From assembly GCF_011630105.1 (NCBI RefSeq), contig NW_022688036.1, positions 64,001-82,236 on the forward strand: a stretch of DNA of 18,236 nt, given 5' to 3'. Origin of the DNA: Anneissia japonica (Eukaryota). The position numbers and the translations under genes were made by a program. The notes beneath the pieces were generated by a model, which did no database searches, had not been told where the DNA came from, and worked only from the letters and a program-made list of their open reading frames with translations. How positions within the stretch are numbered: the stretch's first letter is position 1; each line of letters starts with the position of its first letter. Below, piece by piece: positions 1,836 to 17,420 of this stretch.

Positions 1836-2144
1836 GTATGTACCATAATCTTAATATTCTATTTCATACTTACCCAAATAAACAGACTACACTATTACTA
1901 TAACCAACCCCCCCCCCCCAAAAAAAAAGAAAAATAGAATCTTCCATCACTTTAATCCGTTACTATTAGGAAAATATAAACATAACCCTATAACATAAGC
2001 TAATCAAATATTAAGCAAACATATTTAAAAATATCTTTAATATGTTGAATATTGTGACTTTATCCAGATCTTGTGGGAACATGTTAATAGTTCTTTTTTA
2101 GCAATTACATAGTTGTTGATTTTATTCTCCGGTTGAATTTAAAG

Positions 2145-2365
2145 GATTGGCACTTCAACAAGAAGTTTACTCCATGTTTGCCATGGCCATTGGTATTGTG
2201 AGTCTGGCAGCATTATTGCCTGACTACCGTGGCTATACACAAATTCATGACAGATTAAATGCATGGCTGGATGAGAAGGAGAAAGCTAACTATGGCCTAG
2301 CCTCACAGCTTGAACTTGGCAGTAACTGGTTGGATGTGGCCTCTAAAATGTTTCAAGATGTTTGA
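2145..2365 (+). CDS. Terminal coding exon: G-LALQQEVYSMFAMAIGIVSLAALLPDYRGYTQIHDRLNAWLDEKEKANYGLASQLELGSNWLDVASKMFQDV*. Stop TGA at 2363-2365.
   Basis: Acceptor ttattctccggttgaatttaaag|GA. The long ORF 2147-2365 is in the frame predicted by the upstream exon phases. An 18-residue hydrophobic segment (VYSMFAMAIGIVSLAALL) suggests a transmembrane or amphipathic helix. Confidence 0.55.
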
Positions 2366-5037: not shown

Positions 5038-5298
5038 TATAGGCGGATTCAAGGGGGACCAACCCGACCCCCCCCCCCCCCCCCTTCAATTTGTCAAAAT
5101 TTTAAAAAAAAATAAGAAAAAAGAAAATTCGACTAAAATTTTGAGTCTAGGAATGCCATTTCCTTCCACCTTGAGTTGCCATAATCATAAATTGTCGTAC
5201 CTCACCCCCAACCATGGTGGGCTGAGGTAGTATAGACCCTCCACCTCTGAAAATCCCTCTCTGGGCCCCTCTATTTCAAATTCCTGGATCCGCCACTG
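5038..5298 (+). mobile_element. MITE-like non-autonomous element, copy A1, about 261 bp, with terminal inverted repeats (TIRs): 5' aggcggattcaaggggg ... 3' cctggatccgccactg. It contains a C16 homopolymer and an internal ccatgg-centred palindrome.
   Basis: Homologous at roughly 75% by eye to 15828-16096, and in reverse orientation to 14072-14290 and 12081-12206. The 5' and 3' termini are reverse complements of each other. Confidence 0.6.
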
Positions 5299-6571
5299 AT
5301 AGGCCTATATGCCGGGTGTTTTGTCGATCGACACTCATGATCAGTCGTGGTAAAACATTGTGCCTCAACCTGTGATTCAATTAAACCACTAAAAGCCCCG
5401 CTCCTTGTAAAGTGTTGATGTTAAGATCCCACAAATCAACACGTGCATTTGCGGGACGCCCGTATTCCAGCCATGTTCCAAAAAATAATTTTAAAAAAAT
5501 ACGTATTATCGCACAAGGATATTAAACAAATAATGTAATTATTAATAATTGGGCGATCATTTTTTTTTTTCCCGGCCCAGCCCCCTAACCGTCCCTGAGT
5601 AATGCTATAAACTATAATAAATATAACTAATTTTAAATGTTAAAGAAGAGGTGGAAAAACAGGGATCCGAACTCCGGGAATCATTGCTGCTTTTCGTTGA
5701 GGAACTATGCTTGAATGTATACTGTAACTTCTACAATATATACAGAGTGACTGATATCCAGCTGAGATGTTATTACGAGTTAGAACCCTTTCAGAGTCGA
5801 AGGCAATTCCAAATGATTATATCTGTAACTTCTGTGTCTTTTGTATCCATGATATTTGGTGTTTCTCTATAAAATACTCTCTACTAATTGGAGGTGTCAA
5901 TTAAAGTCTCCTCATGTTTTGGGGGTTTCTGATTGGATCACAGAGAAATTCTTCTTCTATGATATAAAAACATGTTTATTCAACTACAGTATATTAATAA
6001 TAAATAATAATAATACACATTTTTAAAGCGCCTATTAAAGCAAACAAAAACTTGCTTGTCACCGGCGCTATATTGATATTGTTTCCACGTTTGCATGGCG
6101 AAGTAATAATATATGTTAATGCTTGAGGTACGGTACACCACGAAAAGAACTGTTGTAGATTGGTTGAGGAAATTTCGACGTTTCCATTTAGTTGCTTCAA
6201 TGTTGTCTTCAGGAGAATATATAATATATAGACACTCTTAATTTTGATGGATTATCCTACCTAATATTATTGAATCCTAATAATACATTACAATACATTG
6301 ATACCATACAGGCCTATGCTGTAATACAGTAAACCGATATTATTGTTAGAATAAGTATGACTCCAGAAATAGAGAAAAATAATGAAAAGTTTTAGTCCCA
6401 ACTGTACAAATGCCATTGTCTTTAAAGAAATACAAGAAAGTTCAATTCCAAACTCAAAGTAGATATTTTGTATAGATTGATAATTAATTTTCTAAAATAA
6501 AATATAGGCCTAGGCATATACATCGTAAAGCAAAATGACACCATACCGACACCATCCACAATTTTTTACGA

Positions 6572-6607
6572 TTTATTCCAGCGATTCAGTCGACGTCGCA
6601 CTTTATT
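6572..6607 (-). terminator. Two AATAAA poly(A) signals on the minus strand (plus-strand TTTATT at 6602-6607 and 6572-6577), just downstream of the CTLD stop codon.
   Basis: The minus strand reads ggaaAATAAAgtgcgacg and ctggAATAAAtcgtaaaa, 15 and 45 nt after the stop. Confidence 0.35.
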
Positions 6608-6621
6608 TTCCAACATCGTTG

Positions 6622-7086
6622 CTAATAACCACATGGTTTCATTTCACAAACGTATGAAACAGTTGTGTCACCGCAGGATCCATACACTTCATCAGTCGTC
6701 AGATCAACACTAACGCAGTTGCCTGAAACGAGAGCGGTGGTAGACAGAGAAACGGCATTTCCATCGCTATCAAATACATCTGTTCCATCATTGGTCCAAT
6801 CCACATAGTATTGAGATGACCAAGGAACTAGATCTAAAAGTAACGACTTTGTAGCATTGTAGTTTTCTTCGGTCACGTGCATAAATGTTGAAACCGCTGT
6901 ATCATCGGAGAACTTCTCGCATGTCTTACTTGGTCCTATGTTTTGCCACTGCATGTCGTCTACGACTACTTTGATGCATCGGCTTCCAGGAATGGCGTAC
7001 CAAGTAGATGGACAGCTACTGTCACAAACCACAATAAGAAACAGCAGCATTATGGATTTGACCTTTAATAGACAAAAAAAAATCAT
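6622..7086 (-). CDS. Intronless gene for a secreted C-type lectin-like domain (CTLD) protein, 154 aa. The N-terminus (MIFFCLLKVKSIMLLFLIVVCDSS) is signal-peptide-like; the second Met at codon 13 may be the true start.
   Basis: The translation has the long-form CTLD cysteine framework: C-P-x-x-W...C at the start (CPSTWYAIPGSRC), W...C (WQNIGPSKTCEKF), a W-x-W-x-DG-like core (YVDWTNDG), GNCVSVD, and C...YVCE at the end (SCGDTTVSYVCEMKP). There are no EPN/QPD or WND motifs, so it is probably a non-canonical or non-sugar-binding CTLD. Confidence 0.75.
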   Translation of the reverse strand: MIFFCLLKVKSIMLLFLIVVCDSSCPSTWYAIPGSRCIKVVVDDMQWQNIGPSKTCEKFSDDTAVSTFMHVTEENYNATKSLLLDLVPWSSQYYVDWTNDGTDVFDSDGNAVSLSTTALVSGNCVSVDLTTDEVYGSCGDTTVSYVCEMKPCGY

Positions 7087-7144
7087 TTTGTGGATTTATT
7101 ATTTAAAAAAACCTCGAAAGAGACGATTACAGTTTGGGAAGGAA

Positions 7145-7163
7145 AGGTCAAAGGTTAAGGTCA
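7145..7163. promoter_or_regulatory. Tandem nuclear-receptor half-sites AGGTCA-a-AGGTTA-AGGTCA: a DR1 element plus an abutting third half-site. It lies 59-77 bp upstream of the CTLD ATG, with an A/T-rich TATA-like stretch (7092-7103) in between.
   Basis: Read directly: ggaaAGGTCAaAGGTTAAGGTCAtggg. AGGTCA direct repeats spaced 1 nt apart are the classic HNF4/RXR/COUP-TF (DR1) site. Their position next to a gene start is suggestive. Confidence 0.3.
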
Positions 7164-8160
7164 TGGGAATTCTATTTGATTTTTACCCTCGAGCGTAGAA
7201 AAAAATAATACACGTCTTGCGTATTGTTCGGTATTCAGGCAGGAGGTGTGCACTTTAATTTTATTATTACTATTACTTAGGTCCTACTGTTTGCAAAAAG
7301 AAGATAAATCTTATTTCTGATACAGTCATTACCAAAATAGTGTCAATAAAAGAAACAACCCTTCAACAAAAATTATTTTATGTCGAATTACTGTTCTTTT
7401 ATTTGTATTTTTAATTATTTCTATACTTTATTTTTATTTTTTTTATTTATTTCAATTTATTTTACATTTAATTTTTTTCAGCAAGCTGTTTTAAGGTTTC
7501 TTAGTTTTTGAGTTTAAAAAATGTAGGCCTAATATTGAAGTGTTCAAGTACGTCTGATTGTAGTTGTGAAAGTAAGTTACTTTTATGCCGCCCTAATGTA
7601 CTTGGTAATTGCGATAGTGTGTTCATTTGAGAACTGTAATGCTTGAAATGCAGGTGAGAGTGGATCAGATCTAAAAATATGTCCAAACATATTCCATATC
7701 GACTCCGATATTCTGTGGGAAATTTGTTGGGATTTTGTAATAGTATATATATATATGAATTGCCTATTACGTTAGGCCATGTTGAGAATTCCTAGCAAAT
7801 GTATGACATTATACGACTTTGCTAAAAACGTTGGTTTTGTCCAACTATTACTGTTGTATAAAAGAATTGATTAGTGCTTCATATACTTTTTTTCTAAGGA
7901 AATAGTTTTTTCAACCACACTTCTGTTTTCGAATACAATGGTAGCGAGTGTGTTTTCGTTTATCTATGTCTGTGTCAGTAAATGAACCGAGGAGTTTGTG
8001 TTTTGTTCCGATTTTCAACAATAACTTCACTTATATTTGAATCGTGCACTTACTGTTATCCCTTCGTTAACAATAGGTTTCATTTTAAAGTGCTTTAGTT
8101 ATTTATTTTCTTTAGTTTTTACAGTAAAAAACAAATGAGAGATCTAAAATTGTTCTTGAA

Positions 8161-10180
8161 ATGAATGAATCAAAAATTCACAACTCAAAAGATGTAGCTA
8201 GACGTTTCAATACTTACTTTACAAATATGGCCAATCACCTTGTTGACAAGCTGCCCCCTATGAGACATATATTATATAGCTATGCTTCTAAAGTTATCAA
8301 AGATTTTTATTCTTCCAAAGTTTTAAGTTCATTTACTCTTGAACCTGTTACAGAGGAATTCATTCTGAAACAGTTAGAAAACCTGGACCCTACTAAAAGT
8401 ACCGGTCTTGATGGGTTACCCTAAAGATTTTTTTTAAAGACTGTGCCCATGTATCGGCTTCTCCTATTACTTATATTATAAATCTGTCCATCAATACGGG
8501 ATATGTTCCGAGTGACTTAAAAATTGCTAAGGTCACCCCATTGTATAAAAAGAAATGCCGTAAAACCCAGAAAATTATAGGCCCATAAGCGTTCTAAATA
8601 TTGTTTCTAAAATTCTTGAAAAATCTGTTCATATTCAGTTAGAACAATACATTGTTAACAATAATCTCATTTATCAATATCAGTCAGGTTTTCGACAAAC
8701 TTATTCAACTGAAAGTACCTTAACTTAATTTAACTGATACAATCAAATTAAATAATTCCAAAGGCATACATACTGATATGGTCCTAATTGATTTATGTAG
8801 AGCATTTGATACTGTTGATCACGAGATATATGTGAGAAACTTGCTCTAATGGGCGTTACCTCCTTAGACTGGTTTCGTTCATATCTGACGAATAGGACCC
8901 AGGTTGTTAAAGTTGAAGATTCATTATCTGAGCCTATGGATATCACATGCGGGGTGCCCCAAGGTAGCATTTTGGGTCCCTTGCTTTTTTTTATGCTTTG
9001 TAAATGATATGATAGTATTAACCCTGAATGTAAATTACTCTTATATGCTGATGACAGTGCCATTGTATCTTGGCACAATGATCCAAATGTCGTTGCCGAT
9101 AGACTTGGTAACGCTCTTAATTCATGTAGAATTTGGCTTATTGAAAACAAATTATCTATAAACCTCAGTAAAACGGAGTCAATAATTTTTTGTAGTAAAA
9201 AAAAAACTTAAACGTATAAAATCATTTGAAGTCACTAATGGTGGCCGTACATTAAAAGGTTCCCAGTCTGTCAAATATCTTGGTGTTGAACTCGATAATT
9301 CAGCCTCTGGAAATAATACTTGATATTGCCAAGAGTGTTATCAAGAAGGCAAATGCTAGACTATGGTTTCTTTACCGTCAAGCAAGGTGTCTTGACAAAA
9401 ATACTAGAAAATTATTATCTATGGCCCTTATTCAATGCATTTGTGATTATTGTGCTTCTTCATGGTATGAAGGTATTGATAAAGTTTTGAAACAAAAACC
9501 GAAAATAAAATTATTCGGTTTATCCTTGATTTTGGACCACGGACACATGTAGGTCACAAAGAGCTGTCCAGCCCTGGTCTACTTAAGGTTGAAGATCGAG
9601 TTAAATTTTTAAGACTTTGTAATGTCCATAAGATTCTTAATAATAAGGCAGCTCCATATCTTTCTGAGCAATTTACGCGAGTTTCTGAAATTCATACACA
9701 ACACTCGTCAACATAAAGTCAATTTGGTTGTACCTCTGCTTAAAGGAAATAATCAGTCTCATTCTACCTTTTTCGTTTCGGATCAATGACTGGAATGCTC
9801 TCCCAACTAATTTAAAATTAATTACTAATATGGCTACATTTAAAGTACACATCAAAAAACTGTATGAACGCAATAGTGCTCAATTGCAATAATTACAATT
9901 GAGTACTGTTGCGTTCTATCTAAATAATTAGATAATTGGGTGCATCTTGGTTTTTAAATGCTGTTCTTTTTCTTTTTAATATGTATTAATTTTGATAACT
10001 TTCATGATTTTTAATTGTGCAATGTGCACCCCATTGGAAATCGGCTGGATTCCCGGCCTAATGGGTGTTCCAGATCCTCGTTGTGTTTGATAATTGTAAA
10101 AAAAAATTCCTAAATTTTTTTTATTTCTATATTTTATATTTTACATATGAGCATCGAATAAATTCAATTCAATTCAATTA
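8161..10180 (+). mobile_element. 5'-truncated, frameshifted non-LTR retrotransposon (LINE) of the CR1/L2-like clade. It covers most of the ORF2 RT domain, the C-terminal domain, and a 3' UTR with a hairpin and (CAATT)n tail.
   Basis: Translation across three frames gives hallmark motifs. These are FTLEPVTEEFILKQLENLDPTKSTGLDGLP, then NYRPISVLNIVSKILEKSVHIQLEQYIVNNNLIYQYQSGFRQTYSTESTL, VLIDLCRAFDTVDHEI, GVPQGSILGPLLF and LYADDSAIVS (FADD-like). The tail domain reads WLIENKLSINLSKTESIIF ... GHKELSSPGLLKVEDRVKFLRLCNVHKILNNKAAPYLSEQF. Multiple stops and frameshifts show it is dead. It ends in gagcatcgaataaattcaattcaattcaatt. Confidence 0.8.
9866..9916 (+). other. Hairpin in the LINE 3' UTR: a 21-bp stem (2 mismatches) with a 9-nt loop.
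   Basis: GAACGCAATAGTGCTCAATTG-caataatta-CAATTGAGTACTGTTGCGTTC. CR1-clade LINEs typically carry a 3' stem-loop plus a short tandem-repeat tail instead of poly(A). Confidence 0.5.
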
Positions 10181-10762
10181 CTGAAATCGATCTCTTTAAG
10201 TCGTCGAAAATCGACATCATCTGCGAATGCTGTTTCTTCTGTCATACCATTATTGGTAATTTTAGGTGAAAATGTCTATAGGACCGTTCTAAGGAGTGTC
10301 TGTATTGCGGTTATACGGGTCAATTCCACTCCAGAGCAGCAACAGCTTGCGACAATCGCTAGAAAAACACAAAACTAACCTATTTTGAATTCGCCTGTGA
10401 GCGTACACAACAGCAATACGATAATGTTTACGAATAGTGTGCGAGCTGTAATCATCGTTGACAACTTGGATAATTAAAAAACACGATAGGTATTGACGCA
10501 ATCGCGACTAATGCCAATAATAATGCAAACTGCACTTTTTCTCACTTGGCTGACTGTAAATCTAAATTTAATTGATTTGGTATTCTAGAACACAAGTTTA
10601 TTAACAACCAATGAAAATGGTATGGCAATAAGCATTTTATATTCAACCATTTCTGCCCGTCTACATGTGAAAATAATGTTCCTTGTTGTGTATGCTATAA
10701 AAAAAAAATGCTGTCATAAATATCAATAAAGTACTACTAAGCCTATAAAGTACTTCCCTATA

Positions 10763-10832
10763 TAATAAGAATAATAATAATAATAATAAGAATAATAATA
10801 ATAATAGGCCTAATAATAATAATAATAAACTT
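10763..10832. repeat. (AAT)n microsatellite interrupted by ...aataataGGCCTAataat...
   Basis: Direct reading. Confidence 0.9.
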
Positions 10833-12080
10833 TATTTAACCACGGTAAACTAATTGATCACCTCAATGGTGTTTTGATCAATGCTGTAACAGACATAATC
10901 AAACTTAACTAATGTTAAATAAAGAATAATATTAATTACAGGAAATAAAAGGAAACTATTAAAACCAAATTAGGAAACAAAAACTAAAACTACAAAATAC
11001 GAAAAATTATTGTAATACATAAAAATGTGCTAATCTCAATATCGGGTGTGAAATTCAGAAAGCTATAATATCAAACTCATCCATTAGACTGACTAATACC
11101 GATTGAAAATTATGTAAACATTTGCACACGAACCTACTGGCTGGCCCTCCAACTAATACACTGGGGTTTGTTTTTTTAATACAGTAATATTTTGCCAAGG
11201 GTCAGTGTTCTTATAATTGTGCCATCTTTAGACTCAAAATGTTCTTATTTTGTTCTGATTTTAAACACGCTTCAAAGATAGAAAATGATTATTAAACAAC
11301 AGTAGGCATACCGGTATCTTATTCTAGTGTATATCATTCTCACCTACTGCACATAAGGTAAAGTTATGACCAACATAATTTTAGTGCTTTTTATGGGTTT
11401 TTATAGTTTGTTTAATAAAAACATTATTTGACATTTTACCTAAGCCTCAATTTGTTCTTATTTTGTTCTTGTTGTGCAATTTTAGCTTAAGTGTTCTTAT
11501 AAATTGCGTTCTTATATATATAAAAAAAAAGTGTAGTCATTTACAGGTCAGAATGAAGTCATACGGAGAACTGCTACAATAGGCCTACCGAAACGAAACT
11601 GGAGTTGCTTTTGATGATTTACGTCAAGGCCGTTTGTGAATGGATAACAGAAAATTAATAAACTGGAGATTGGCAGTATGGTTAATATTCACTCTACCTT
11701 GACGCTATTACTGAAGTTTATTGAATACAAAAGCTTTTAAAAGATTTCTAACGTACAATTATATTGAATTGCAGACAAGTACATTGATTTTTGAGTTTAT
11801 CCATCAAAAAATGTTGAAATAACTTGGTTCCTTCACAGTAGAATTTCAACATACCAGCCGTATACTTATTTAAATGATCTGATGGTCTAGAGGTCTTTCT
11901 TTATTAGTAAATAGGATTATGCCTATTTAAATTTTAGATTGTAATAGAGCCCTGCTCTGGGACACTTTTGTGAAGAATCTTGATATAAGTGTCAGTAAAT
12001 ATTATGAATTAATTTTCTTAAACAAGACAAACTAACTTGAAATTAAATGTTGATAGTTTTGACATTCCAATCATGAAGGG

Positions 12081-12206
12081 CTAGGTGTAATCAGGGGCTG
12101 AAATAGAGGGGAGCCAGGAAATGACTTTTACAAATGGAGAGGGAGTATGTATATATATAATTTAGAGGGCCAGGCCGGCTTTTTGCATTTGAATCATCCG
12201 CCACTG
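12081..12206 (-). mobile_element. MITE-like element, copy B1, reverse orientation and strongly internally deleted (about 126 bp). Its right terminus is ...gaatcatccgccactg.
   Basis: ctaggtgtaatcaggggctgaaatagaggggagccaggaaatgac matches B2 and the reverse complement of the A1 3' end. It ends with the family terminus ccgccactg. Confidence 0.45.
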
Positions 12207-12403
12207 GTAATTATCCCCCAAAATTACTTGAAATGATGTTCAAAAGGGTAATGTCACTTAGTCATATCTTCAGAGAGGGGTGTGCGATGGGTGCGAAACA
12301 TGAATGGTTTCCGTGTGACGACATTGAAACTTTGGTCATTTACTTGATCCTCCGTAATCAAAATTTGATCAAAACAATAAGTGTGGTGAACGTATTTTCA
12401 GTA

Positions 12404-12602
12404 CAGTGGCGTATCTGGGGATGTGCGGAGAGACGCACATATCCCCACCCCCTCCTCCCCCACCCTACACTGCAAAAGAAGAAAGTTTACGCTTTTCCAG
12501 TCTCTCCCTCCCCCACCTCCGCACTGCATGGAAATATGAATATATATAAAAATCATCTATTTTATTTTGCCAGCTACCGCCTCCCCCTCTTTACCATCAC
12601 TA
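12404..12602 (+). mobile_element. MITE-like element, copy A3, forward and divergent. It starts TA|cagtggcgtatctgggg and ends ...ccatcactaa.
   Basis: The 5' 100 bp parallel A1 and A2: cagtggcg-atctgggg, then a C-rich run, then aaaagaagaaag. The 3' end resembles the TIR weakly. It lies head-to-head with B1, with 197 bp between them. Confidence 0.35.
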
Positions 12603-13167
12603 ACACACATTTCTCTTAGACACGCCGCTGTGTTTCAATAGCTAGCCTATTTGTTTTGTGCACTACTAAATTTCGAGTAATTCTATCTAAATATAGTATC
12701 CTATTTAGACCTACTTACGTTTTCCATGGTGTGATAAAGTGTCGGTTTATAGATCGTTAATATATTTAAGAATAAATATTATAATGATCTCTGGCCTTGA
12801 TATGTCTTCTGAATTAATATGAGAGCGTTTTATATTCACCGGTACCCAATCATGCCTATAGGATTATTAATATTATAATTGGAATGAATGCTCTGATGTG
12901 GGGATTGGATGTCTCTCCCTTTTATCACTGTTTTTTAACTGAAAATGAATAATTCCTAAAATGAAGTGAAAAAAAAGAAAAAAACAAGTAAGAGTAATAA
13001 GAAAAAAGGCCCTCATTCATTGATACTGCAAAACAAATAAAAGAGGACTTAGAACCATGGTTGAAAAAAAAATGGATCCTCTGCCGGGAAATAGCACATG
13101 CATACTTTACAAAAATGAATGTCCCTCACTTTAAAAGGGTAATACATTTAGATTGCAAATAGTCAAG

Positions 13168-13204
13168 TCATCATCATCATCATCATAATCACCACTACCA
13201 CCAC

Positions 13205-13288
<84 letters not shown>

Positions 13289-13342
13289 CATTATTATTAT
13301 TATTATTATTATCGTTATTACTATTATTGTTATTTTTATTAC

Positions 13343-13402
<60 letters not shown>

Positions 13403-13418
13403 CATCCTCATCGTCATT
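13168..13418. repeat. Compound microsatellite of about 250 bp: (ATC)6, then (ATT)n of roughly 70 units with a few ATC/GTT variants, then ATC/GTC units.
   Basis: Direct reading. It produces the spurious poly-Ile ORF 13163-13432. Confidence 0.95.
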
Positions 13419-14071
13419 AAGGAATGGCGCATTAGAAATCGAATAATGAATTGTTTTTTTATACCACTCCAGGTGGCGTTTTACATATAAACATTACTCA
13501 ATGGACTACGAAGGAAACTTTACAATTAGTAACAAATGTAAGTACAGCATTGAACATTTGCATCGTTAATTCACTAGTTAATGGGAATTCTGTCATCATT
13601 CTATGGTTATTATTTTGACTACGTTTGTTAGGCATCCGCATTGAAGGCATTGACAATTTCCTCGACAGAAGCATGCACTGACATGGCTGCATTTTATTCA
13701 GCAACATACATTCCAAGTGACTCGCTAAAACCACCAAAGACCTGAAACTGCCTAAAATACAGTAATTACAGCTTGGGGCTTGTCAACTTCCGTTCGTTGT
13801 TTACATTGTAGATTCGTATATGTTTGTTTTTTTTTTTGGTTTTTTTCATTGACAATATATGCAATTTATTACTAAGAGCCTATTACTGGTACACAACTGT
13901 CAATCCTGAACAATCGAAATTTGTTATAGCCCGACAAAAATATTTCTATATTATTTTTAAAGGACAGCGAAAGTGATCAGGGTAGGCCCAATTAATGACA
14001 CCAAATGTCTTTATCAACATTGATATTAATATCTTCATGGATGTGTACTTCCATGACAAAAAGGTACTACT

Positions 14072-14290
14072 GTAGTGACGGTTCAAGAAGTTCGAAATAG
14101 AGGGGATCCAGGAGACTTTCACAATGGATTTATGATTATGTCACCTCAATGGTCCATGCTCTAGATGGCCGGAAACAACTTAAATATGAATAAAATTTTC
14201 ATTTTCTTCTCCGTTTTTGAATATTTTTGAATAATTTAGGCGGTGGCCGGTTGCCGGTTGCACAATTCCCCTTTTTGAATATACAGAGCA
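14072..14290 (-). mobile_element. MITE-like element, copy B2, reverse orientation, with an internal deletion.
   Basis: tagtgacggttcaagaagttcgaaatagaggggatccaggag...atttatgattatg...aaaattttcattttcttctcc is the reverse complement of the A1/A2 3' half. The right end is less clear. Confidence 0.5.
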
Positions 14291-14315
14291 GTTCAACATT
14301 TAATATAGGACTGTA

Positions 14316-14399
14316 ATAATAATAATAATAATATTAATAATAATAATAGACCTAATTATAATAATAGACCTAATAATAATAATAATAATAATAATAGGC

Positions 14400-14454
<55 letters not shown>

Positions 14455-14508
14455 TAACAATAAGAATGATAATAATAATAATAACAATAACAATGATAAT
14501 AATAATGA
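14316..14508. repeat. Microsatellite (AAT)n of about 190 bp with interspersed TAGACCTA, TAGGCATA and CAAT variants.
   Basis: Direct reading. Confidence 0.95.
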
Positions 14509-14984
14509 AAAGTTATATAAAGTGCCGGTATCCCTTTAAGAGGAAATGCTCATGGTGTCCCTCTAAAACTCGTAAAGAAAGTCGAAATGTGAAATATATT
14601 TACATTTATAATACATTTGAAATAAAGATAGGCCTACATTTTTAAAAACAGACATGAGCCGTACATGTCTGAGACTCTCTCTATGTGGCCATGTGTGCAC
14701 GGATATTTATTTATTTATTCATTACCAATTCGACATATAGGCCTAGATGAATAATATGAAATGCAAGACATAGACAAGGCCCGACACCAATGGTGGTTCA
14801 CTGATCATATGATAAAATGTAGTTCATACATTCATTCATAAAGTAAAATCAATACAAAAAAGCGTGAATTTGAAAACAGTGTTAGCAAGAGGGCTCACAG
14901 TTTTTAATAAAAGATAGGGCAGCAGACCATTTAACAGAAAATGGCGCTAGGAGGAAGAGTTTTCTACAATTTAGCTGCCTTAAT

Positions 14985-15130
14985 AAAAACCGATTACGCC
15001 CCTTTTCCCCCCAGTTTTTAAATATTCAAAAATCTGTATCTCATTCACCGTTCCCCAGTTTTTCGTCAAACAACTTTTTTCTGTCTTTGAAAAATCAATT
15101 CTACAACATATCATTTTTTTTTTCCTCCGG
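14985..15130 (+). repeat. Possible further partial copy of the same MITE family (5' half).
   Basis: cgccccttttccccccagtttttaaatattcaaaaatctg resembles the A1 stretch cgacccccccccccccccccttcaatttgtcaaaatttt, and the reverse complement of B2 tttttgaatatttttgaataat. Weak. Confidence 0.2.
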
Positions 15131-15344
15131 AGCCTGACTTTAAATCGACATTACTAGCCAATTTAAGAGTCTATGTATGAATAAGAATATAGCACTGGTA
15201 TAATTTAACTGTCTTTTAATTGACAGGAAAACAATTTTGTCATTCATATTGTAAGCTTGTAACTTACTTAAATATAATTATTCAGTTATGAAATTAAATT
15301 CTTTATCTTTCAGCTCAAGAAAGACAGTGTATATTTAAATTTTA

Positions 15345-15492
15345 AATTGGACCTCATTGGAAATGGGCTTGACTCCGGACTAATGGACGTTCCTGGTGCT
15401 CACTACGGTAATTTTTACTTTTCTTGATCTCAATCTATTTGTTATCTTGCTTATGCATGTTGAGCATCGAATAAATTCAATCAATCAAAAAA
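15345..15492 (+). mobile_element. Second, tail-only copy (about 150 bp) of the same LINE 3' end, heavily 5'-truncated.
   Basis: cattggaaatgggcttgactccggactaatggacgttcctggtgctc...tgagcatcgaataaattcaatcaatc matches 10040-10180: cattggaaatcggctggattcccggcctaatgggtgttccagatcctc...tgagcatcgaataaattcaattcaatt. Confidence 0.55.
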
Positions 15493-15827
15493 TATTATAT
15501 CATGAAAAATGTTTGTAGGAAGATTATAGATATAGTATTATATTTATTGTTTATTGTCTATATATTCATTTCTAGTACAATAGTACACATTTTATAAATT
15601 TTATGTACCCGTGACAATCAGAATGCTAACATTATTTGTTTGCGCTATTGCGATCTACTAGTCCTGTCCAATGCCATGTATTTAATAATCCTCACATCAT
15701 TCCGTGGTATGATGATACTATATAGATAATTAATATTTAATATGATTATGCTGATATGATAAGAATTGTGAAGCACTATTATGTTGTACCAGCAGCATTG
15801 TCCATTATCATATATAACTGGTTGAGG

Positions 15828-16096
15828 TGCTCCCCTGGAAGGGGGAGGGGAGGGTGACAACCGTCCTGCCTCCCACCCTAAATCTTTTAAAATGGTAAAA
15901 AATTGGAGAAAAAAAGAAAATTACATTTAAATTTAAAATCTGAGAGTGGCATTTCTGGACATCTAGAGGTGCCATAATCGAAACGTTTATTACCTCAGCC
16001 CCATCCATGGTGGGGAATGAGGTGGTGGGAACCCTTCATATGGCAAAGTCCCTCCCCGTAGGCCCCTTTATTTCAAACCTACTGGCTCTGCCTCTG
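15828..16096 (+). mobile_element. MITE-like element, copy A2, same family.
   Basis: Aligns with A1 along its full length: ...aaaaaagaaaatt...ggcatttc...gccataatc...cctcagcccca-tccatgg-tggggaatgagg...ggcccctttatttcaaacctactggctctgcctctg. Confidence 0.6.
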
Positions 16097-16501
16097 TTTT
16101 TATTTATGTATTATTATGTTTTGATGATACTCCGTTATATTCTTTCTCTGTTTCCTAATCTTTTCTCAATATTTTTCTATTCCAGTGATGTAGACAAAGA
16201 AGCCACAACTGTCAGTAAAAAATGTGAAAGGGCAACCGAACTTACCAATTATTCGTAGATAGCCAAAAATTGTGTAATCTCAAAAAAATAATGTTAGCAA
16301 TATGTAATAATTCTTGTAGGCTTTATGTTTATTAATATTGTATTATTGCTGCTAATATTTATCTTATTGAGGAAGTAACCCGTTTGTTGTAAAGAATGTA
16401 GACATGTACGATAATAAGATATAACATTTTGCGGATTAAAATGAGATTTATTGATATTTGCCAGATGAACATTATATAGGCCTACAGTATATAAACATAA
16501 A

Positions 16502-16767: not shown

Positions 16768-16978
16768 TAAAACCGGAAATGACGTGGTTGCTAAGCAACA
16801 AGCTCATGCATAATCATGAATATTCAGTGACACCTGTTATAATTAGACTAACAATAAAATCTTTTTGGTCGATTTTGTCAAAACTGAGCTAAAAGTTTTT
16901 ATTGTTAGTCTAATGAGCACAGGTGTTACTGAATATGCATGAGCTGTAGCCTAGCAACCGACGTCATTTCCTGTTTTG
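16768..16978. mobile_element. Foldback / long-TIR MITE-like element: two inverted arms of about 85-90 bp (roughly 85% identical, with one 10-bp indel) around a 37-bp spacer.
   Basis: Left arm aaaaccggaaatgacgtggttgctaagcaacaagctcatgcataatcatgaatattcagtgacacctgttataattagactaacaataaaa. The right arm reverse-complemented is aaaacaggaaatgacgtcggttgctaggctacagctcatgcatattcagtaacacctgtgctcattagactaacaataaaa. Confidence 0.6.
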
Positions 16979-17420
16979 TAAAATTCGACAGCACCTTGCT
17001 CTGAAAAGTTTCGTAACTTTTTGGTGTCATGTAAATATGTTTTGAAAGAGTGTTTATAAGATATAGTAGCCTGTAGTAGTGCTATATTCGAATCGAAGCG
17101 ATTATAATATATTTAATTCGATTATATACTGAATAATAATCATGAAATATATAATATTATTATTAATGTAATTACGAAAAAAGAAGTACGCACTATGATG
17201 TATTATAAATTACACTACAGTGTACATTTATTTCTTACATACTCGGAAATTTTACATCAGAGCTATATAAACGTAATATAAATAGAATATAAAGATTTTA
17301 GTTTTATATAATATAATATAATATATATATAATGCCTAGGCCTAATTATATTTAACTATGTAATATCATTCGAGAATTACTTGCTCGTTGTATAAGAAAC
17401 ATAATTGGCAAATTTAATTC

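Follow-up and report, generated by a model that had tools for sequence, protein, structure and literature searches.

The repeats found in the stretch of DNA analysed here (18,236 nucleotides; hereafter the window) are short, discrete, non-coding elements with terminal inverted repeats (TIRs), i.e. MITEs. Four copies form one family of about 260 bp (A1, A2, B2 and B1), and A3 represents a sister family. We consider it probable, at about 80%, that these repeats represent decayed non-autonomous cut-and-paste DNA transposons of the hAT type. Taken together, 8-bp target-site duplications (TSDs) and a CAGTG terminus favour hAT, leave the P superfamily as a minor alternative and argue against Tc1/mariner or pogo. 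These relics are real but ordinary and eroded, and they belong to a known kind of element.

One family, a sister element and their relatives

The window is AT-rich eukaryotic DNA (32% GC) containing spliced exons, a LINE reverse-transcriptase pseudogene and microsatellites, together with one true repeat family, composed of A1, A2, B2 and the internally deleted B1 (Table 1). BLAST aligned A1 (5067-5298) with A2 (15860-16096) at 70% identity over 237 bp (E 3e-32), and B2, on the minus strand, was 66-76% identical to both. A search profile built from A1, A2 and B2 gave strong matches to exactly those three copies and recovered B1 weakly; B1 also displayed a significant similarity to B2 (z 4.9), and BLAST gave a 39-bp match between the two at 85%. 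Since homology stops at the termini 5298, 16096 and 14073/14074, the four copies are discrete, as is usual for multicopy hAT MITEs, and element sizes range from 126 to 281 bp. The sequence-only reading, which had described a family of separate TIR elements with inverted termini and a poly-C tract followed by an A-rich block, was borne out on these points, this block being alignable in A1, A2 and B2.

Table 1. Positions of the elements, their duplications and their palindromes in the window
Feature	Positions	Strand	Remarks
A1	5038-5298	+	best-preserved copy; 3' terminus ...CCCCTCTATTTCAAATTCCTGGATCCGCCACTG intact; profile E 2.9e-76
A2	15816-16096	+	profile E 7.6e-76; 3' terminus CTGGCTCTGCCTCTG, 4 mismatches to the 16-mer motif
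B2	14073-14290	-	profile E 8.8e-49
B1	12081-12206	-	internally deleted, 126 bp; profile E 0.15 (weak)
A3	12404-12630	+	227-bp TIR element, separate family
A1 left TSD, proposed remnant	5039-5044		ATAGGC, 6 of the 8 bases of ATAGGCCT
A1 right TSD, 8 bp	5299-5306		ATAGGCCT
A3 left candidate TSD	12396-12403		TTTCAGTA; 7/8 against 12633-12640, empirical null P = 0.007
A3 right candidate TSD	12633-12640		TTTCAATA; extra TG (12631-12632) between TSD and CTG end
A1 imperfect palindrome	5200-5227	+	CCTCACCCCCAACCATGGTGGGCTGAGG; dG -9.7 kcal/mol, z -3.45 against shuffles
A2 imperfect palindrome	15993-16022	+	CCTCAGCCCCATCCATGGTGGGGAATGAGG; dG -10.4 kcal/mol, z -3.17 against shuffles

Erosion of the ends varied between copies. 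In the 5' TIR of A1, homology begins at 5042 (GGCGGATTCAAGGGGG), the first four nucleotides (CAGT) being absent. The 5' terminus of A2 is eroded (AACTGGTTGA, 6/10), as is that of B2, around 14280-14290. At its 3' terminus, B2 reads TAGTGACGGTTCAAG on the plus strand from 14073, in agreement with CAGTGGCGGATCCAG at 11 of 15 bases. In B1, the 5' TIR (CAGTGGCGGATGATTCAAA) runs downwards from 12206, with the near-perfect terminus CAGTGGCGGATG at 12195-12206 (-), and the 3' end (...CCCCTCTATTTCAGCCCCTGATTACACCTAG) is eroded. The exact 16-mer CAGTGGCGGATCCAGG, which had been put forward as the common terminus, occupies a single site in the window (5283-5298, minus strand); up to three mismatches brought one further site, the 5' end of A3.

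The earlier count of five or six recently active copies had to be revised to four family members plus one sister-family element. The candidates for a sixth copy, 'A4' (1903-1945 and 14982-15038), proved to be low-complexity or E > 1 matches only. With A1 and A2 only 73% identical (K2P 0.34) and termini mostly eroded, the family is old. Given these mutated or deleted termini and a divergence of about 27% between copies, the window copies are no longer mobile.

A3 had also been counted as a copy of the family. It gave neither a BLAST nor an nhmmer match to A1, A2 or B2, and its global alignment to the other copies did not rise above shuffled sequence (z 0.5-2.2). Its termini, CAGTGGCGTATCT... 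and ...AGACACGCCGCTG, match at 11 of their first 13 bases. As judged by these alignments, the interior of A3 has no demonstrable homology to A1, A2 or B2, and the terminal motifs alone appear to be common. The two families have only a terminal recognition sequence in common, CAGTGGCG(G/T)AT.

A metagenome scan yielded two independent intact relatives (L011/L012 and L013/L014; 191 and 207 bp), with the 5' end CAGTGGCGGATTCAAGGGGG, the 3' end CCCCTCTATTTCCAGTTTCYGGATCCGCCACTG and CAGTGGCGGAT termini, identical at both ends in L011. A profile of the metagenome relatives matched A1 end to end (E 3.3e-7). The repaired LINE reverse transcriptase matched only metagenome proteins, at 56% identity or less; of the loci fetched through these matches (L025-L028), L027 carries the 3' half of a related element and the other three carry none. 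A protein search for further copies with the read-through ORF of the L013 element returned no candidates, and a protein search with the spliced 229-aa gene product found no homologue. Two wider scans produced chance matches: the 10 viral-contig matches to CCTGGATCCGCCACTG all lay in unrelated GC-rich contexts, and none of the 10 matches to CAGTGGCGGATTCAAGGGG in bacterial and archaeal genomes had a 3' TIR within 450 bp.

Regarding coding capacity, neither the window nor the loci L011, L013 and L027 contained a transposase ORF or an autonomous partner; a hAT partner would share the TIRs and encode an enzyme with a BED finger, a DDE/RNase-H fold and a C-terminal hAT dimerisation domain. The sequence-only reading had placed several ORFs inside the copies and dismissed them as genes. 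The dismissal stands, Pfam giving no match for any ORF of at least 60 aa overlapping a copy; the placement needs correcting in two cases, the ORF 12233-12619 lying only partly inside A3 and the interval 15645-16258 consisting of three separate ORFs. In annotation, the segments are best masked as relics of hAT-type MITEs and not labelled as genes or Tc1/mariner elements, and small ORFs running across them should be disregarded.

Target-site duplications and superfamily

The hAT superfamily is recognized by 8-bp TSDs and short TIRs (about 10-25 bp) with the terminal pattern YARNG, into which CAGTG fits. Short TIRs of this type were observed, with the motif at both ends of L011 (CAGTGGCGGAT), at the 3' end of A1 and at the 5' ends of B1 and A3. 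Both intact relatives sit between perfect 8-bp direct repeats (ACTGCGAC and CCACCACT) in which TA is not involved. In the window, 8-bp TSD signals were obtained at A3 (7/8) and at A1, where all six retained bases match within ±2 nt (empirical null P = 0.003). The A2 match (5/8) was not significant (P = 0.25) and none was recognizable at B1 (2/8); no TSD was obtained for A2, B1 or B2.

Each of the two signals in the window requires a small post-insertion indel, which counts against the hAT assignment. In A3, the extra TG would be a later slippage insertion of 2 nt. For A1, we propose that 9 nt (CTCAGTGGC) between two GGC triplets were deleted, namely the final 2 nt of the TSD and the initial 7 nt of the TIR. 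A substitution-only model of this 5' end demands four changes in four nucleotides beside 16/16 identity, for a flank match of 3-4/8 (P 0.59), and the microhomology deletion is therefore more parsimonious. Also counting against hAT, no hAT transposase or autonomous partner came to light in the sequences searched, clean TSDs come from two intact relatives only, A2, B1 and B2 yield none, and neither nTnnnnAn nor nnnTAnnn, the consensus reported in some hAT clades, is seen in the four TSDs.

As a separate observation, the palindrome TAGGCCTA is about 65-fold enriched and is more curious than the MITEs themselves. One of these over-represented octamers, at 5300-5307, overlaps the right TSD of A1; the octamer was absent from all four of the loci L025-L028.

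The TA directly 5' of A3 had been read as compatible with a Tc1/mariner- or pogo-like target. The dinucleotide is present, and Tc1-like TIRs often start with CAGT, but A3 5' is the only assessable junction in the window to carry it, the others being AT (A1 3'), TG (A3 3') and AC (B1 5', in element orientation). TA is also absent from all four junctions of the intact relatives, which show perfect 8-bp TSDs instead, making Tc1/mariner- or pogo-type MITEs at TA targets exceedingly unlikely. It is highly improbable that the copies are segments of a larger composite repeat or reflect chance similarity between G/C runs. The poor definition of most 5' ends in the window, the low complexity of C-run and A-run sequence and the resemblance of A3 to the other copies in general layout only would all fit such an origin. 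Against it, the alignments of A1, A2 and B2 (E 1e-32 to 1e-76) stop at the termini, and the relatives have clean TIR-plus-TSD boundaries. Between flanks, the only similarity detected was a 42-nt AT-rich match (76%) lying upstream of both A1 and A2; its spacing of 10928 is out of register with the 10793 of the elements, and it looks like low-complexity chance similarity.

The P superfamily, whose MITEs would be moved by a P-type (THAP-domain) transposase, is defined by 7-8-bp TSDs and CANRG termini; the evidence used for hAT also fits this definition, and TSD and terminus alone therefore cannot fully tell the two apart. We know of no P elements in land plants, and hAT clades such as Buster, Charlie and SPIN typically have termini of the CAGTG type. 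A near-identical 17-nt terminus belongs to an Arabidopsis element classed as hAT by its authors (PMC2289841). On the other side, 8-bp TSDs and a CAGTG terminus suit P as well as hAT, and 'Pegasus-like' is the term used for the matching families by the silkworm authors, with no superfamily given (PMC2997013). Altogether, we regard a P origin as unlikely.

Under the preferred hAT reading, a transposase encoded elsewhere in the genome would act in trans on these elements (element ends considered for such a partner, CAGTGGCGGAT...ATCCGCCACTG). Binding would involve the TIRs (11-13 bp) and, probably, subterminal sequence too. The element would then be excised and reinserted at a staggered 8-bp cut, the repair of which would generate the 8-bp duplication.

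The internal palindrome

The CCATGG-centred palindrome was described by the sequence-only reading as conserved in all full copies. It was found in two of the four family members, A1 and A2, B2 having lost the left arm of the hairpin and B1 the whole region. Folding, the check suggested for it, gave structures better than shuffles in both carriers (Table 1). Inheritance as part of the family sequence is the likeliest origin of this G/C-rich internal palindrome; a putative further role is that of a subterminal binding or structural feature.

A stronger proposal, that selection maintains the hairpin, or the foldable element in its entirety, as a functional structure of RNA or DNA (for example a MITE-derived small-RNA precursor or a cis-regulatory cruciform), appears very unlikely to us. 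Folding does exceed that of shuffles in A1, A2, L011 and L027 (z -3.1 to -4.4), the distance between hairpin and 3' end is similar in these four, and siRNAs can arise from MITE ends (PMC2289841). Set against this, B1 and B2 no longer have the hairpin, that of L013 is weak (z -0.8), the two carriers in the window offer no informative compensatory change, and no Rfam covariance model matched any part of the window at gathering thresholds. There is a slim chance that the palindrome, about 50-100 nt from the 3' end, would be a functional cis element of the hAT-MITE lineage, selected on structure and not on sequence. This idea comes from the presence of a well-folding palindrome in the window family, L011 and L027, in the same relative position each time despite their internal divergence; its orientation is C-arm first in the window family and G-arm first in L011 and L027. 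Its putative roles in cis may include a structure-specific transposase-binding site or a small-RNA-generating hairpin.

Comparison with published elements

A literature search with the full 16-mer CAGTGGCGGATCCAGG and with TAGGCCTA gave no match, sequence fragments returned only noise such as PCR primers, and the literature on Pegasus, hAT and Anopheles added nothing on the superfamily of Pegasus. The terminus CAGTGGCGGAT(C/T)C, published for silkworm and Arabidopsis MITEs, also occurs in this AT-rich eukaryote, probably an animal, and in metagenome contigs, host-associated or environmental. Near-identity of a 16-17-nt terminus between a plant, an insect and the present genome would imply either an unusually constrained transposase-DNA interface or horizontal transfer; knowledge of transposition itself is unchanged by these relics. 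Stowaway and Tc1/mariner MITEs are likewise small, hairpin-capable TIR elements, some with TIRs starting CAGT, but their defining trait is a TA target duplication, and this the window elements do not show.

The silkworm families BmMITE-13 (CAAGGGCGGATCCAG, 263 bp), BmMITE-14 (CAGTGGCGGATTA), BmMITE-15 (CAGTGGCGTACCTA) and BmMITE-16 (CAGTGGCGGATTT) all have 8-bp TSDs and similar TIRs with unrelated internal sequence; BmMITE-13, -14 and -16 were described as 'Pegasus-like' MITEs, their transposase not being named (Han et al. 2010, PMC2997013). The TIRs of these three are almost identical to CAGTGGCGGATCCAGG / CAGTGGCGGATTCAAGG, their 8-bp TSD is non-specific as here, and their sizes are 263-431 bp. 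TIRs held in common over unrelated interiors also characterize A1/A2/B2 compared with A3. The likeness is one of TIRs, TSD and size; the host differs, and young high-copy bursts (BmMITE-13) contrast with the old, eroded window copies. The TIR of BmMITE-15 is the closest published terminus to that of A3 (CAGTGGCGTATCTGGGG), comparable over the first 11-12 nt only; this family is similar in size (300 bp against 227 bp for A3), and has an 8-bp TSD against 7/8 with a 2-nt offset.

The Arabidopsis element MPF is a 220-bp non-autonomous hAT element beside FLC with an 8-bp TSD, single-copy in Col and Ler, and yields 24-nt siRNAs; the siRNA probe used for one end of the element has the sequence cgagCAGTGGCGGATCCAAGA (Zhai et al. 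2008, PMC2289841). MPF resembles the window elements in its length of about 220 bp, in its 8-bp TSD and in having short TIRs, and it is hAT according to its authors. The end probe contains CAGTGGCGGATCCAAGA, which matches the 3'-terminal inverted repeat of the window elements (CAGTGGCGGATCCAGGA) at 16 of 17 nt, a likeness of terminus and not of internal sequence. MPF differs from the window elements in its plant host, its single-copy state and its role as a source of 24-nt siRNAs.

Copies and age of the repeat family

The window probably (about 0.8) contains an ordinary, old hAT-type MITE family, accompanied by one element of a sister family. These elements show a TIR structure and no coding capacity, and their alignments end at the termini, making them discrete elements. 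Self-BLAST of the window revealed homology between the copies A1 (5067-5298) and A2 (15860-16096), over 237 bp at 70% (E 3e-32), with the minus-strand copy B2 similar to both (66-76%). A profile of these three copies gave strong matches in the window to them only (E 1e-49 to 1e-76), confirming that a repeat family exists. The profile weakly matched the 3′ part of B1 (E 0.15), whose 5′ terminus, CAGTGGCGGATG (12195-12206, minus strand), is near-perfect and whose alignment with B2 lies far above shuffles (z 4.9); B1 is a 126-bp copy with an internal deletion. The 16-mer terminal motif at the 3′ end of A1 (5283-5298, minus strand) occurs exactly once in the window and, with at most three mismatches, at one additional site, against 0.03 expected. 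An intronic stretch, AACCAACCCCCCCCCCCAAAAAAAAAGAAAAATAG (1903-1945, plus strand), similar to the A1 C-run / A-rich block (5060-5125), was not significant against the family profile and may be an element fragment or mere low-complexity sequence.

The sequence-only reading had proposed five or six copies with recent activity. This count was wrong: a sixth copy, "A4", was not found in the window, and A3 does not belong with A1, A2 and B2. A3 possesses good inverted termini (CAGTGGCGTATCT / AGACACGCCGCTG), but its interior, giving no BLAST or nhmmer match to the other copies and a z of 0.5-2.2 against shuffles, could not be aligned to them, and it was therefore treated as a sister family. As to age, the 73% identity of A1 and A2 (K2P 0.34) and the mutated state of most termini mark an old family with no recent activity.

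Intact relatives and target-site duplications

As the window copies are too eroded for direct reading of TSDs, relatives were sought by scanning metagenomes with the pattern CCCCTCTATTTCN{4,12}GGATCCGCCA. Two different intact elements were recovered from four contigs (L011/L012 and L013/L014), both bordered by perfect 8-bp TSDs not involving TA. Their profile matched the whole of A1 (E 3.3e-7), whose 5′ end, GGCGGATTCAAGGGGG, they share exactly. In the window, the TSDs are partial. A1 is flanked on its 3′ side by ATAGGCCT, and its truncated 5′ end reads ATAGGC followed by GGATTCAAGG, which would fit the loss of 9 nt (CTCAGTGGC) between the two GGC triplets in ATAGGCCT joined to CAGTGGCGGATTC (null for this match, P = 0.003). 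The A3 flanks, TTTCAGTA and TTTCAATA, agree at 7/8 positions (empirical null P = 0.007), the right TSD copy being shifted by an extra TG.

A TA does precede A3, from which a Tc1/mariner- or pogo-like target had been proposed; it adjoins the 5′ end of A3 and no other terminus, and this assignment is wrong given the 8-bp TSDs of the relatives.

At 10379-10540 of L013, 160 bp from the intact copy, sits another element of this type, in decayed form (CAGTGACGGATCTAGG...CCCCTTGAATCCAGCTAG); elements thus cluster in that genome too. In the ENA metagenome contig L027, a related element is represented by its 3′ half (8778-8951), ending in TTTCAATTCCTGGATCCGCCCCTG.

Internal palindromes and surrounding sequence

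The CCATGG-centred hairpin, described in the sequence-only reading as conserved in all full copies, is present in A1 and A2 (z -3.45 and -3.17, folding versus shuffles) and missing from B1 and B2, the latter having its left arm deleted. At a similar distance to the 3′ end, the relatives harbor a different G/C palindrome: GGGAAGGGGGCATAGCCCCCTCCC in L011 (z -4.4), GAGGGGGGCACATCCCCCCTC in L027 (z -3.1) and a weak one in L013 (z -0.8). The window palindrome aligns, by its G-rich arm, with the G-rich left arm of that of L011. These few sequences, with no scorable compensatory change, are no more than suggestive of a conserved structural feature.

A distinct 8-bp palindrome, TAGGCCTA, is present at 11 sites in the 18-kb window against ~0.2 expected (~65-fold; reached by 0/200 shuffles), while its one-mismatch variants are enriched only ~3-fold. 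All sites are non-coding, with none in the first 5.3 kb, where the gene sits; one served as the A1 insertion target, and the flanks have no extended consensus in common. L011 and L013, which carry related MITEs, contain 8 sites each, the same enrichment at 43-44% GC, and three unrelated eukaryotic loci (L025-L027) contain none. Since L027 nevertheless bears a related element, the MITE lineage reaches beyond the TAGGCCTA-rich lineage. Possible causes are a protein-binding site specific to the lineage or the target or footprint of a transposon, among others; we found no mention of the motif in the literature.

The window is AT-rich eukaryotic DNA (32% GC). No Rfam match was obtained in it, nor any Pfam match for the scanned ORFs of at least 60 aa, the sole ORF left out being a translated (ATT)n tract.

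Features of the window and intact relatives
Feature	Position	Strand	Description
A1	5038-5298	+	family copy
A2	15816-16096	+	family copy
B1	12081-12206	-	family copy
B2	14073-14290	-	family copy
A3	12404-12630	+	sister-family element
Gene exons	212-483, 1443-1549, 1738-1839, 2143-2365	+	four, GT-AG-bounded
ORF	6622-7086	-	single exon, 154 aa, hydrophobic N-terminus, several cysteines
LINE reverse-transcriptase pseudogene	8100-10180 (RT part ~8100-9900)	+	frameshifted; RVT_1, E 3.8e-29
(ATT)n / (AAT)n microsatellite blocks	13160-13400 and 14310-14510		two, inverted, 194 nt, 88% complementary
Foldback element	16770-16990		~215 bp; arms 16814-16877 and 16879-16942, 84% complementary, 1-nt spacer
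TAGGCCTA sites	5300, 6505, 7524, 10805, 11580, 14629, 14738, 16477, 16707, 17337, 17673		
L011/L012 element			191 bp; TSD ACTGCGAC both sides; 5′ CAGTGGCGGATTCAAGGGGG ... 3′ CCCCTCTATTTCCAGTTTCCGGATCCGCCACTG
L013/L014 element			207 bp; TSD CCACCACT both sides; 5′ CAGTGGCAGATTCAAGGGG ... 3′ CTGGATCCGCCACTG

The four exons code for the last ~229 aa of a protein ending in ...NWLDVASKMFQDV*, which has no Pfam domain and no homologue at E <= 1e-3 in a 5.8-billion-protein search and may be lineage-specific or fast-evolving. The 154-aa ORF, without a Pfam match or an entry in the assembly index, looks like that of a secreted protein from its N-terminus and cysteines. The closest database relatives of the LINE reverse transcriptase are unnamed proteins at 56% identity, and its tail ends in ...GAGCATCGAATAAATTCAATTCAATTCAATT; a second copy of the ~150-bp LINE 3′ tail alone (repeat D12, 15330-15490, plus strand) is either a 5′-truncated LINE copy or a SINE with the LINE tail in common. 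Pairing of the foldback continues outward by eye (AAACCGGAAATGACGT...ACGTCATTTCCTGTTT), and the element resembles an unrelated palindromic MITE. The long microsatellite blocks, ~915 bp apart, flank the region holding B2.

Proposed mobilisation and published termini

A hAT transposase would mobilise these elements in trans, presumably recognising the CAGTGGCGGAT termini and making 8-bp staggered cuts at the target. No partner transposase was found, neither the window nor L011, L013 and L027 containing such an ORF. Mobilisation by the P superfamily, with the same 8-bp TSD and CANRG terminus, is a minor alternative, against which speaks the near-match terminus of a plant hAT element. This element, which favors hAT, is Arabidopsis MPF, non-autonomous and 220 bp long, with a TSD of 8 bp; siRNAs matching one of its ends were probed with cgagCAGTGGCGGATCCAAGA (PMC2289841). 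A silkworm MITE survey described four 8-bp-TSD families of 263-431 bp, named "Pegasus-like" by its authors, with common TIRs (CAAGGGCGGATCCAG, CAGTGGCGGATTA, CAGTGGCGTACCTA and CAGTGGCGGATTT) and internal sequences that are not common (PMC2997013). The terminus found in the window is therefore an already published MITE terminus, assigned to hAT in Arabidopsis.
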